A stretch of 59,077 nucleotides of DNA, from IMG/VR virus record IMGVR_UViG_2690316267_000014; one strand, written 5' to 3'. How positions within the stretch are numbered: position 1 is the first letter of the stretch; every line of letters starts with the position of its first letter. The position numbers were made by a program. Of this stretch, positions 33,001-36,000 are shown piece by piece. This stretch comes from a virus (lineage: Duplodnaviria; Heunggongvirae; Uroviricota; Caudoviricetes).

Positions 33001-36000
33001 CCATTCCGACTGCATCATCTATGAGGTTATCTGCCTCGAGATACTTCGCGTATCCACGGTGTCTGACGGCGTGGGTGTTACGCTGAGAAAAAGCATTTGA
33101 AGGTGGCAAAAGTCTGGAACCACGAGTCCGTTTCGTTTCTGCCAAATTTGCGCATTTTTCATCACAACCATCATCGCCTGAAGGCTCGTCATGACTGGAG
33201 TTGCCGTCAGATTTCTGCGCACTTTTTTGATCATCAATTTGCGCATTTTTCTGCGCACTTTTCTCTGTATTTCTGGGGGAGTGTTTGCGCAGTTTAATGT
33301 ACCGCCGAGCCGTGTCATAACTGATATTGTTCTGACGGCACCAGTCCTGAAGCTTTATGCCGGTTTTGACATGTTCGCGTCGAAATGCCTGCTCCAGCTT
33401 TTTCCAGTCCAGCTTTGCCATGTCACCTTCTGACGTTCTCTGTTAAAAACTGATGCACAATGACTGCTGTAAATTTTCAGATTTCACACAGCAGAGCCAT
33501 GTCTGATTAATGTTTAACCTTATTTAGGTTATATCCGCTTCATTCCACTACAGCACCAGATAGGCTGCCTCGCGGATAAATGCCAAAGTCTCCTGATATA
33601 GAAACCCGTCGCCACATCGAGCGCTGATCAACATTTGTATATTCACTGCGACAGAAAGAATTTATTTTATTGAATAGTTAGAAATACAGAATTGCATGCT
33701 TTATAAGCATTGACGCACACTTCATTTTTAGCAATATATTCTGTTCTCATAGACGATCAGCCCTGCATGCACTGCCGGACACCGTCGGCAATTTTACAGA
33801 CCTAAGAGGCAATACCAAAAAGCTAACGCGCTTTATCAAGACTTGAACAACCAACCAATAAAAAAAGCACCAGTACCGCTACCAATGCCCATTTCGTCGT
33901 TGTTCACAGCATTCTGTGTACCCACTGTATTTCGCGTCATATCACCACGTCAGACAATCCTTAAGGATTACATAAGATTTACGCATAATAATGCCCATTT
34001 TCAACACAGACAAGGGAATTTATATGTTAAATCAAACGCTAACAAAATCTCTTCTTATATTTTTACTTGTCATAATCGTTTCTGTATCCATCATATACAT
34101 TGTAAGAACTCCAGTCAGACTTGATGTGAACGATGTCACTGAGATTAACCAGAAACATCCCATTATTTTTCTCATCCGGCATGGGGAAAGATGCGATCGC
34201 TCCCAAAGAATATGTCTTTCAGCACATGAGGGAATCACAGTAAACGGAGCTAACAAAGCTCAACAATATGGAGATAAATTCAGAAGAATGTTTCCATACT
34301 ACAGTCTCTATTCTACAGACACACTCCGAACAATGCAGACAGCCACTTTTTTTTCGGGAGGTAAGACAGCAACTATTCCGGACATATCGACATGTGATGA
34401 TAACGCAGTAAATAATATCCTTAAAATATCAAAATCAGATCATGTTACTGTGATTTTCACACATAATCACTGTCTGTCCAGAATTGCAAAAAAAATGAAT
34501 GGATGGAGATTTAAACCTGATTATATGGGCACACTGGTTCTGCATCGGGAAAATCACAATCTGATTCTCGACGGACATTTAAAACCAAACGAGCTTACCC
34601 AGTGATCCATTTGTTGATAATGCACTGGCATTGATTCAGGTTATATCTCTCCTCATAAAAAAGGCCAGCGATTGAGCTGGCTCTGTTAATCGAGGCATTG
34701 CATCCTGATGTACTCCTGCAGGTAGTTAACCTGCGCGGTTATCTTGTCGATTCCACTTCGGAGACGGTAATAATTGAGTTCAGCATCTGCTGTAAGTCCT
34801 GAGCTTTCTCCATCGCCCATGCCGCTGGCTCCGGTCGTTGACTTTGCACAGGTGGCGGCGACTTGCAGGCGCTTACGCCCAGCAGAAACATCAGCACGGA
34901 GACTTTCAATAGTCGCGTTAGCATCAGCAAGCTCCCTGGTGTATCTGGCATCGAGTGCAGCAACATCACGCTGGCGCTGCTGTATGTCAGCAATGGTGGC
35001 GTTCGCCTGGCTGAGTTTTGTCTTCGCATCATCTCGCTGCTCTTTGTAGGTGATGGCGTTATCACGGTAATGGTCTGTTGCCAGCCACAGCGATCCACAA
35101 CCAAGCAGCAGGACAATAAGCACGCCATACAGCACACGATTCATATCACCACCAACGGATTGCCCAGACCAGAACAGCAATTGCCACAATACGAATGGCA
35201 AAAGCTGCCGCTCTTGTTAAATCCAGACTTGCTGGCGTCTCCACCTCAATGCCTTTCATAATGGACAACCTCAGAAAGAATCTTTTATACTTCCTCACAG
35301 GGAAAGAACCTCCCTACCCATAATTTCTCCCTTGCCTTATTCAAGGTCAGAAACACAAAACCCCGCTTGCTGCCAACAAACGGGGTTTTTACTTTTACTC
35401 ACTTAAATTTTGCCAGTTCGCAGGATTTCGTGTTATCCGTTCGCGTTGGTCAACGGCATTTTTCAGCAGAATATTCTGCTTATCTGTCGATACTCCAGCA
35501 CGCCAGCGCGCTCTCCTGGTCACGCCGCGATACCTGCCCGTAACAGTTATTTGAGCGGTTCCGACAGTCCCTGCCGCCGTCATATATCCATCGGCGGATT
35601 TCAGCACATGCACCTTTCCGGTCTCCTGCGTTCAGTTTCCGGTAAAACGTTGAGGTGAAGCATTTCGAAGGCCCGATGTTGTACGGACAGAATGACGCGA
35701 TGCCCGCTTTCTGCGGTTCGGTCAGTGGCACTCTGATGTTTTTCTCCACCCATGCCAGCGCCTTATCACGCTCAATGGCGTTAACCCGGTCGCATTTTTC
35801 CTTCGACAACTTCATGCCCGGAACGACAGGTTTGCCATCCACCAGGATGGCACCGCGGCAGATAGTCCAGATACCCGCACCATCACGGTATGCCGTGGTG
35901 TGGTTACCTTCTTTTTCGTCAAGAAACTGGTCGAGGATTTCAGGCGCAGAAGCGCCCGCAGCAATCAGCGCCAGAACGACCGCTGATAAACCATAGCGGA

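Follow-up and report, generated by a model that had tools for sequence, protein, structure and literature searches.

A terminator-like hairpin and a predicted membrane-protein gene with an apparent dual start between the endolysin and spanin genes of a lambdoid lysis cassette

Introduction

For lambdoid and Shiga toxin (Stx) phages, the assignment of the lysis cassette to holin, endolysin, and spanin genes is considered complete. Here we examine the interval between the endolysin gene R and the i-spanin gene Rz in IMG/VR virus record IMGVR_UViG_2690316267_000014, a sequence of 59,077 nucleotides (nt) from a virus of the Caudoviricetes that we refer to, over its whole length, as the window. The R-Rz spacer holds a terminator-like hairpin and a small open reading frame (ORF), which together form a module that sits inside the cassette in about a third of complete Escherichia coli genomes; its carriers include O157:H7 prophages, Stx phages, and LT-II toxin prophages.

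Several described systems share features with this locus. The dual-start holins of lambda (S105/S107) and phage 21 (S21-68/S21-71) are, like the predicted product of the small ORF, small membrane proteins of the lysis cassette with two in-frame starts a few codons apart, in which the longer form carries extra N-terminal positive charge and an internal Shine-Dalgarno (SD) sequence lies inside the extension. The small ORF differs from them in the size of that extension (13 residues and a charge of +5, versus 2 to 3 residues and +1), in having only one predicted transmembrane helix, and in residing in a cassette that already has its own S21-type pinholin, and it had no match to holin families in Pfam, NCBIfam, or the annotated PHROGs. 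Its product does not look like a spanin either: at 37 or 50 amino acids (aa), it comprises a single predicted helix, leaves no more than about 16 residues outside the membrane, and lacks a lipobox, and Rz and Rz1 follow as separate genes.

In phage P2, lysA is an accessory membrane-protein gene between the endolysin gene K and the spanin genes lysB and lysC, and acts as a non-essential modulator of lysis timing. The small ORF resembles lysA in specifying a predicted membrane protein from the endolysin-spanin slot; LysA is larger, with several transmembrane helices, and is not known to have a dual start or an upstream hairpin. Phage Mu gp25, the "releasin," is reportedly a small single-pass membrane protein that assists lysis in an accessory role and is encoded in a cassette whose endolysin is of the signal-arrest-release (SAR) type, whereas the small ORF also occurs beside Peptidase_M15_4 and GH108 endolysins and so is not tied to the SAR type. 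General family scans returned no LysA-like or releasin-like family among the library matches of the small ORF. Type I toxin-antitoxin loci (hok/sok, tisB/istR-1, zorO/orzO) share with the small ORF a short hydrophobic peptide, a structured leader, and a prophage location, and perhaps also an antisense RNA against the leader. Unlike them, the small ORF is coupled to the next late gene, lies inside an operon without a promoter of its own, and has no Rfam hit.

Lambdoid late transcription is antiterminated by Q, and Q-modified polymerase ignores intrinsic terminators. The hairpin in the spacer resembles terminators that Q overrides (tR′) and those at moron boundaries in its GC-rich stem and U-run, in its location inside a Q-antiterminated unit, and in standing at a boundary of cargo insertion. 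In contrast to these, its place is between the endolysin and spanin genes and not after pR′ or a moron, and it has a symmetric A-run and U-run and is inherited with a downstream small gene across bacterial classes. None of the nearest analogues of the small ORF (dual-start holins, P2 lysA, Mu releasin, type I toxins) is a sequence relative of it, and databases list its family only as "hypothetical protein."

Results and Discussion

The small ORF as a gene

A first-pass annotation of the window had described a minus-strand ORF of 37 aa (35146–35259), preceded by a GAGG ribosome-binding site, whose stop abuts Rz. All of this was confirmed, the TGA codon lying one base before the ATG of Rz. The Prokaryotic Genome Annotation Pipeline (PGAP) calls the 37-aa ORF as hypothetical protein WP_000675931.1 (in E. 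coli ML35 and in O157:H7 strain TR01), and it carries locus tag ECs_1094 in strain Sakai. When we compared the window copy with those of the phiP27-type subfamily, we counted 19 to 20 synonymous and 4 to 5.5 nonsynonymous differences, corresponding to a saturated synonymous divergence (dS) of about 2 and a ratio of nonsynonymous to synonymous divergence (dN/dS) of 0.02 to 0.06. Because dN/dS is so low at this dS, we conclude from the substitution pattern that the small ORF is a genuine protein-coding gene under strong purifying selection. Variable sites among intact copies of the window's class comprise five third positions, three first positions, and no second positions. Amino acid changes in its family (family A, below) are conservative, of the I/V/L type, with F20, I22, R23, W32, R35, and W37 invariant.

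The small ORF matched PHROG 4493, a family of unknown function (E = 5.5e-16), with residues 1 to 37 falling on positions 14 to 54 of the 56-position profile; neither it nor the two other small ORF families described below had a match in Pfam or NCBIfam. AlphaFold2, run on the family alignment, produced a single helix spanning residues 9 to 36 (mean predicted local distance difference test score of 83), and the product is predicted to be a single-pass inner-membrane protein. Homologues were found in Citrobacter, Yersinia, Silvimonas, and metagenomes, the search having been run with the 50-aa frame described in the next section since a 37-aa query is too short.

An apparent dual start

Beyond what the first-pass annotation had noted, the small ORF probably has an additional start 39 nt upstream. 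The frame remains open from the ATG at 35259 to a GTG at 35298 that is preceded by GGGAGG (SD1, 35309–35314), while the ATG has its own GAGG 9 nt upstream (35269–35272). The long form (35146–35298, minus strand, 50 aa) would consist of the 13-residue extension MRKYKRFFLRLSI followed by the 37-aa form MKGIEVETPASLDLTRAAAFAIRIVAIAVLVWAIRWW. The PHROG 4493 profile reaches 13 positions upstream of the 37-aa form, and the extension is conserved at the protein level, with the consensus Y(K/R/H)K.F.LR(L/I)(S/T)M, in E. coli, Silvimonas terrae, and metagenomic and distant relatives. It reads NYKRFFMRLTM in Silvimonas, NYKRILLRLTM and RKYKLILLRLTM in metagenomes, and YRKTFRLRISM and YHKIFRLRLSM in relatives recovered by exhaustive search. 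Its codons vary synonymously (AGA/CGA/CGC, TTC/TTT), and from this combination of protein-level conservation and synonymous variation we conclude that the extension is coding.

Both starts appear to be maintained. In six lineages the long-form start is GTG, TTG, or ATG, each with an SD-like motif 4 to 10 nt upstream, and the internal Met is also conserved. The Arg codon 6 to 9 nt before the internal Met is the rare AGG in six of six lineages, whereas AGA, AGG, and CGN codons all occur at the other Arg positions; this argues for selection on the nucleotides GAGG as an internal SD sequence. Dual-start coding together with an internal SD sequence would explain the near invariance of the 37 nt that precede the ATG, in contrast to the saturated synonymous sites of the ORF. 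One lineage (L093–L095) has lost the upstream start, which reads GAG there, and retains an intact ORF. The two predicted forms differ in charge: the basic N-terminal extension gives the 50-aa form an additional +5, and the N-terminal tail of the 37-aa form has a net charge of -1. With two in-frame starts, an SD sequence before each, and greater N-terminal positive charge on the longer product, the gene carries the dual-start signature, and we predict that both starts are used in vivo. The ORF is under-called in current annotation, being given as 37 aa instead of 50 aa and missed altogether in phiP27, whose record has no annotation of it.

A hairpin with the form of a bidirectional terminator

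The first-pass annotation had also pointed to a perfect 9-bp stem with T-runs on both strands, and this was likewise confirmed. The stem-loop occupies 35357–35389, with stem arms AAAACCCCG and CGGGGTTTT flanked by T-runs TTTTTACTTTT on the plus strand and TTTTGTGTTT on the minus strand; with its flanking A-run and U-run, whose roles swap between strands, the element spans 35347–35400. The 33-nt hairpin element occurs once in the window and did not occur in 100 shuffles. Minus-strand RNA, which has the sense of the lysis genes, can form 15 uninterrupted pairs, including G·U pairs, around a 3-nt loop followed by UUUUGUGUUU (-21.4 kcal/mol, z = -3.35), and none of 200 shuffled sequences folded as stably. 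Plus-strand RNA forms nine pairs, an internal loop, and three more pairs followed by UUUUUACUUUU (-14.8 kcal/mol, z = -2.5). The element therefore combines a GC-rich stem-loop and a U-run on both strands, as is expected of a bidirectional intrinsic (Rho-independent) terminator.

A GC-rich hairpin is present about 40 to 100 nt upstream of the long-form start in all family A copies except the diverged copy L092. The lineages share the lower stem, (A)nCCCCG/CGGGG(U)n, and the upper stems differ yet pair (GTTTGTT/AGCAAGC, GGCTG/CAG(T)CC, GATTG/CAGTC, and, in loci L348 and L349, GGGGTG/CAC(T or C)CC). Compensatory changes were evident in the RNAalifold consensus, where pair 19-33 is UG in nine sequences, GC in four, UA in two, and AU in one; a few copies contain broken pairs. 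For the window's subfamily, folding clearly favors the sense strand, which is the only one on which some variants pair, while phiP27-type hairpins are of equal strength on both strands, with U-runs on both sides. The hairpin thus looks like a bidirectional intrinsic terminator that is under selection as a structure, and termination at it is predicted from its anatomy.

An Rfam scan of 33400–37000 at E ≤ 1 returned a single hit over the hairpin, resembling the rimP leader, at 24.6 bits against a cutoff of 47 bits. We rejected this sub-threshold hit as a chance match to a generic terminator shape. Between the hairpin and the long-form start lies a leader (35299–35346, minus strand) in which SD1 is contained within a small AGGGA/TCCCT hairpin; in an alignment of module variants, the stem of this second hairpin is kept and its loop is variable.

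Distribution of the spacer and of the module

The R-Rz spacer of the window is 335 nt long (35145–35479), as had been reported, and we asked how common such a spacer is in a set of 77 IMG/VR loci that combine an endolysin of this type with a recognizable Rz. The view that the gap is unusual, R and Rz being normally adjacent, did not survive this comparison: the two genes lie within 17 nt of each other in only 3 of the 77 loci, and the spacer is at least 300 bp in the other 74. Spacers fall into discrete classes of 300/301, 334–339, 429, 441, 490–495, 607, 645, ~1000, 1200, and ~1900 nt. A spaced R-Rz arrangement is the majority layout of phage-21/Stx-type cassettes in E. coli. The window spacer is 100% identical to that of E. 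coli ML35 and 99.5% identical to that of phage GER2, and it matches 1,830 of 5,426 complete E. coli genomes (668 at ≥80% coverage) and 185 phage records. In the Qin prophage of K-12, rrrQ and rzpQ overlap without a spacer, so K-12 data are of no help for this locus.

The first part of the spacer (35396–35479, minus strand) appears to be a 3′ untranslated region (UTR) that is inherited with R. The ~88 nt after the R stop codon recur in every spacer class, with an identity close to that of R, and were assigned to the R module for that reason. In the window, this segment opens directly after the stop codon with a perfect 14-nt palindrome, GCAGAATATTCTGC (35466–35479); most relatives have GCAGAATATTTTGC at the site, which pairs only as sense RNA, through G·U. 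The long spacer classes continue from the ~88-nt R tail into a different terminator-like hairpin (GGCACCGTAATGGTGCC TTTGTCATTT) and carry cargo, such as the antirepressor gene (ant) in Sakai Sp9. In cassettes with other endolysins, LT-II enterotoxin genes occupy the endolysin-spanin interval, and LT-II genes have been reported just 3′ of a phage lysozyme gene (PLoS One 2012, PMC3252337). Since the long spacer classes hold cargo, we regard the endolysin-spanin interval as a cargo-insertion site.

Of the 77 loci, 70 have a small hydrophobic ORF whose end lies 1 to 7 nt upstream of the Rz start. These ORFs belong to three unrelated families: A, which includes the window's ORF (PHROG 4493, 26 loci), B, of the H-19B type with sequence MAEKLSTWKFILIWLVFVIMASGYFIGQIRWW (PHROG 6632, 12 loci), and C, which begins MSDKLITLAK (PHROG 4906, 32 loci). 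The two other families in sister phages, like the inheritance of the hairpin, leader, and family A ORF as one module, go beyond the original description of the locus. A nonsense-disrupted family B copy in one Stx2a phage had no IMG/VR match, compared with at least 120 intact copies, and we therefore rejected it as a sign of general decay.

The family A module follows different upstream genes, among them an R21-type lysozyme, the Peptidase_M15_4 endolysin of phiP27-like cassettes, LT-IIB, a further endolysin type in two metagenomic contigs, and unidentified genes, one of which lies 3′ of a GH108 endolysin (L347). The most distant context is in the betaproteobacterium Silvimonas terrae (L300, NZ_JACHHN010000001, locus 600–2400), where the order is a membrane/coiled-coil protein, a lysozyme, the hairpin, the dual-start ORF, and a phospholipase D (PLD)-like gene 2 nt after its stop. 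In every lineage the two terminal Trp codons and stop (WW-stop) of family A are followed within 1 to 2 nt by the next start. In the window this junction is TGGTGGTGA-T-ATG (35142–35154, minus strand); it is kept as TGGTGGTGAnATG, and as TGAAAATG or TAAAGTG in distant lineages, whatever gene is downstream. In the window and most relatives that gene is Rz; L348 and L349 instead carry there a different i-spanin gene that overlaps an o-spanin gene. The phiP27-type cassettes (L088–L091 and L178; 20.2–20.9 kb in phiP27) have two holins, a Peptidase_M15_4 endolysin, and no recognized spanin. In the spanin position of these cassettes the small ORF is coupled to a gene for a 60-aa lipoprotein (PHROG 7528, lipobox LLVGC). 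The phiP27 and Silvimonas contexts led us to reject a strict tie of the ORF to Rz. To judge from these arrangements, what stays constant is the location behind an endolysin together with translational coupling to the next gene.

Proposed role of the module and alternative explanations

We favor, with moderate confidence, an explanation in which the spacer is made up of the 3′ UTR of R, a bidirectional terminator, and a dual-start gene for an accessory lysis membrane protein. In a lysogen, the hairpin would stop RNA polymerase that lacks the Q modification, from either direction; such polymerase could derive from upstream moron promoters, from leaky late transcription, or from morons that lie 3′ of Rz on the opposite strand, for example the phosphatase gene (33991–34605). 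Q-modified late transcription would read through the hairpin, which would also mark a junction for the exchange of endolysin modules, morons, and the downstream module. We found no sense-strand promoter-like site between R and Rz, so the ORF is probably expressed from the late transcript only. Its product would be a single-pass inner-membrane protein, translated from both in-frame starts along with the late proteins, and translation of Rz would be coupled to, and partly dependent on, that of the small ORF, whose stop abuts the Rz start. Because the isoforms differ in N-terminal charge, they would probably differ in membrane topology or insertion and so tune a late step at the envelope. The difference, if S105/S107 and S21-68/S21-71 are a guide, may lie in how the N terminus crosses the membrane.

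A conserved membrane-protein gene that is embedded in the lysis cassette and coupled to it makes a lysis role a reasonable inference from position and translational coupling. We propose only tentatively that the small protein modulates lysis. Less likely still, in our estimation, is the broader proposal that the module represents a class of lysis regulator not recognized before, in which a one-helix protein with two isoforms of opposite N-terminal charge, and possibly a topology dependent on the proton motive force, times or licenses the last step of envelope disruption via the i-spanin, and which is shared across Gamma- and Betaproteobacteria, including Stx and LT-II prophages. A membrane-insertion-sensing arrest peptide was considered and rejected, since at 37 to 50 residues the helix would still be in the ribosome tunnel when the stop codon is reached.

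The first-pass annotation had suggested that a terminator inside the lysis operon and an additional small membrane protein could modulate lysis timing. The terminator anatomy proved to be conserved and the small ORF to be a genuine gene for a predicted membrane protein, but we doubt that the hairpin acts in timing, because Q antitermination would render a sense-strand terminator irrelevant in lytic growth. It more probably serves to insulate against unmodified polymerase, to delimit modules, or to do both, than as a timing device. Several other observations also weigh against the explanation that we favor. The LT-II lineage has lost the sense-side U-run and kept the antisense one; this lineage and the equal stability of phiP27-type hairpins on both strands also weaken the idea, suggested by variants that rely on G·U pairs, that the hairpin is selected on the sense strand only. 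The small ORF protein is not tied to Rz, given its lipoprotein and PLD-like partners in the phiP27-type cassettes and Silvimonas, and a few cassettes lack any such ORF and have R and Rz adjacent. Constraint on family C is weak (dN/dS of about 0.3 to 0.5, with some comparisons near 1). Family A is narrow, with 29 clusters at E ≤ 1e-3 in an exhaustive HMMER search of 1.84 billion representatives, and the gene is dispensable at least occasionally, as indicated by a frameshifted copy (L059) and a nonsense codon in the Stx2_14040 copy. Our literature search returned no papers on ECs1094, and the ORF is unmentioned in the lysis-cassette literature and the spanin survey that we searched.

Some of these observations would fit a moron-like cargo gene, placed in an insertion hot spot, whose membrane peptide has no part in lysis and acts instead in superinfection exclusion, membrane stress, or host fitness. 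The interval does hold unrelated cargo in relatives (ant, LT-II toxin genes, extra small ORFs), the downstream partner is sometimes not a spanin, and a terminator-like hairpin stands at the module edge, as at moron boundaries. We nevertheless consider this explanation unlikely. No promoter-like site precedes the ORF on the sense strand; the hairpin is upstream of the gene and not downstream of it; the stop-start junction with the next gene is kept in every lineage, as is the position after the endolysin across bacterial classes; and three unrelated families of hydrophobic ORFs share the same pre-Rz slot in 70 of 77 loci. It is more improbable yet that the ORF is a mere translational-coupling leader, melting structure before the Rz start with a peptide of no consequence, and that the hairpin is a recombination scar; of the explanations weighed here we give this one the least credence. 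It would account for a stop 1 to 7 nt from the Rz start in all three families, for the resemblance of the WW-stop sequence GGTGGTGA to an SD sequence for Rz, for the occupation of the slot by unrelated sequences, and for the weak constraint on family C. It is at odds with the selection on amino acid sequence apparent in family A, with the hydrophobic single-helix character kept in all three families, with the conservation of the N-terminal extension and the RWW end across bacterial classes, and with the compensatory changes that preserve pairing in the hairpin.

Control by a cis-antisense RNA, as in type I toxin-antitoxin loci, is also improbable in our view. A candidate plus-strand sigma-70 promoter-like motif, TGGACA-18-TATACT (35262–35291), points at the hairpin and could give rise to an RNA of ~100 nt that ends there, complementary to the leader and the long-form start, which would control either a membrane-toxic peptide or the ratio of isoforms. 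The motif matches at 10 of 12 positions and has an equivalent in Silvimonas (TAGTCA-18-TATAAT), all lineages have a good plus-strand U-run, which is the only side kept in the LT-II lineage, the product is short and hydrophobic like type I toxins, and antisense small RNA (sRNA) genes such as HnrS adjoin Rz in sister prophages. However, one promoter-like site was found where shuffled sequences yield an expected 1.5, and the motif lies wholly inside the conserved coding block, so that its conservation is not independent evidence. The plus-strand hairpin is the weaker of the two in the window's subfamily, in which some variants pair on the sense strand only. Neither an Rfam family nor any of the 63 candidates from Hfq cross-linking and analysis of cDNA (Hfq-CRAC; Tree et al.) was found in the spacer, the latter having been sought in the homologous spacer of Sakai Sp4. 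We know of no type I toxin that is translationally coupled to a spanin gene, which also counts against this reading.

Known prophage sRNAs (AgvB, AsxR, Esr41, Pas, HnrS, StxS) were considered as identities for the locus and rejected, as neither Rfam matches nor genomic slots agreed. The Pas sRNAs map between the esterase and holin genes, upstream of the holin, and not in the R-Rz spacer, and AgvB, AsxR, and EcOnc03 occupy the moron site 3′ of pR′. HnrS (EcOnc10–12), which is located downstream of Rz in sister prophages, had no match in the window. In Sakai Sp9 (L179), HnrS (EcOnc12; NC_002695 1779522–1779569, minus strand) is 75 to 120 nt downstream of Rz on the opposite strand, so both flanks of Rz carry regulatory or cargo elements in sister prophages.

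If, as the accessory-lysis explanation would have it, the small protein tunes lysis or spanin action, then the timing of phage and toxin release in pathogenic E. coli would be affected, and the textbook lysis pathway would gain a component. The dual-start signature offers a cheap genetic handle that requires only two point mutations. Even if the protein is dispensable, recognition of the endolysin-spanin interval as a cargo site bounded by a conserved two-way terminator, and of the under-called ORF, should be useful for the annotation of prophage late regions.

Neighboring features of the window

The remaining lysis genes of the window are all on the minus strand. The S21-type pinholin gene (36018–36230, Pfam Phage_holin_2_1) is followed by R (35480–36013), which encodes a SAR endolysin of the phage-21 type (Pfam Phage_lysozyme, E = 5e-25; "lysozyme" in PGAP) with a SAR-like hydrophobic segment visible at the N terminus of its translation. 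Rz lies at 34686–35144 (Pfam Phage_lysis, E = 8e-37) and contains, embedded in its +1 frame at about 34739–34924, the o-spanin gene Rz1, with a lipobox (...LLGVSAC) and a proline-rich mature part. An alternative-frame ORF (35395–35613, minus strand) runs over the 3′ end of R into the spacer, and its last 42 codons are annotated as a coding sequence in GER2; it is probably not a gene, because conservation there lacks codon periodicity.

Two further terminator-like hairpins were seen on the minus strand. One, with 13 pairs, is strong and lies just upstream of the holin gene (36271–36300), in the esterase-holin interval. The PasA and PasC sRNAs of enteropathogenic and enterohemorrhagic E. coli prophages have been reported in this interval (bioRxiv 10.64898/2026.05.13.724894). 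The other, at 34664–34681, is followed by CTTTTTT and lies right after the Rz stop codon, between the convergent Rz and phosphatase genes, with a good U-run on the minus strand only.

The phosphatase gene (33991–34605, plus strand) encodes a histidine-phosphatase-like protein of 204 aa, named in RefSeq as a lipopolysaccharide core heptose(II)-phosphate phosphatase (Ais/PmrG-like). It had no PHROG match, is cargo in the slot where lambda carries bor, and lacks a good plus-strand terminator of its own. Beyond it, at ~33760–33927 on the minus strand, is a frameshifted remnant of a PHROG 7528 small-lipoprotein gene, with 68% identity by tblastn to the equivalent stretch of phage GER2. Because the PHROG 7528 gene directly follows the small ORF in phiP27-type cassettes, this remnant hints that, in the window, insertion of Rz/Rz1 and the phosphatase gene has separated the small ORF from the lipoprotein gene.

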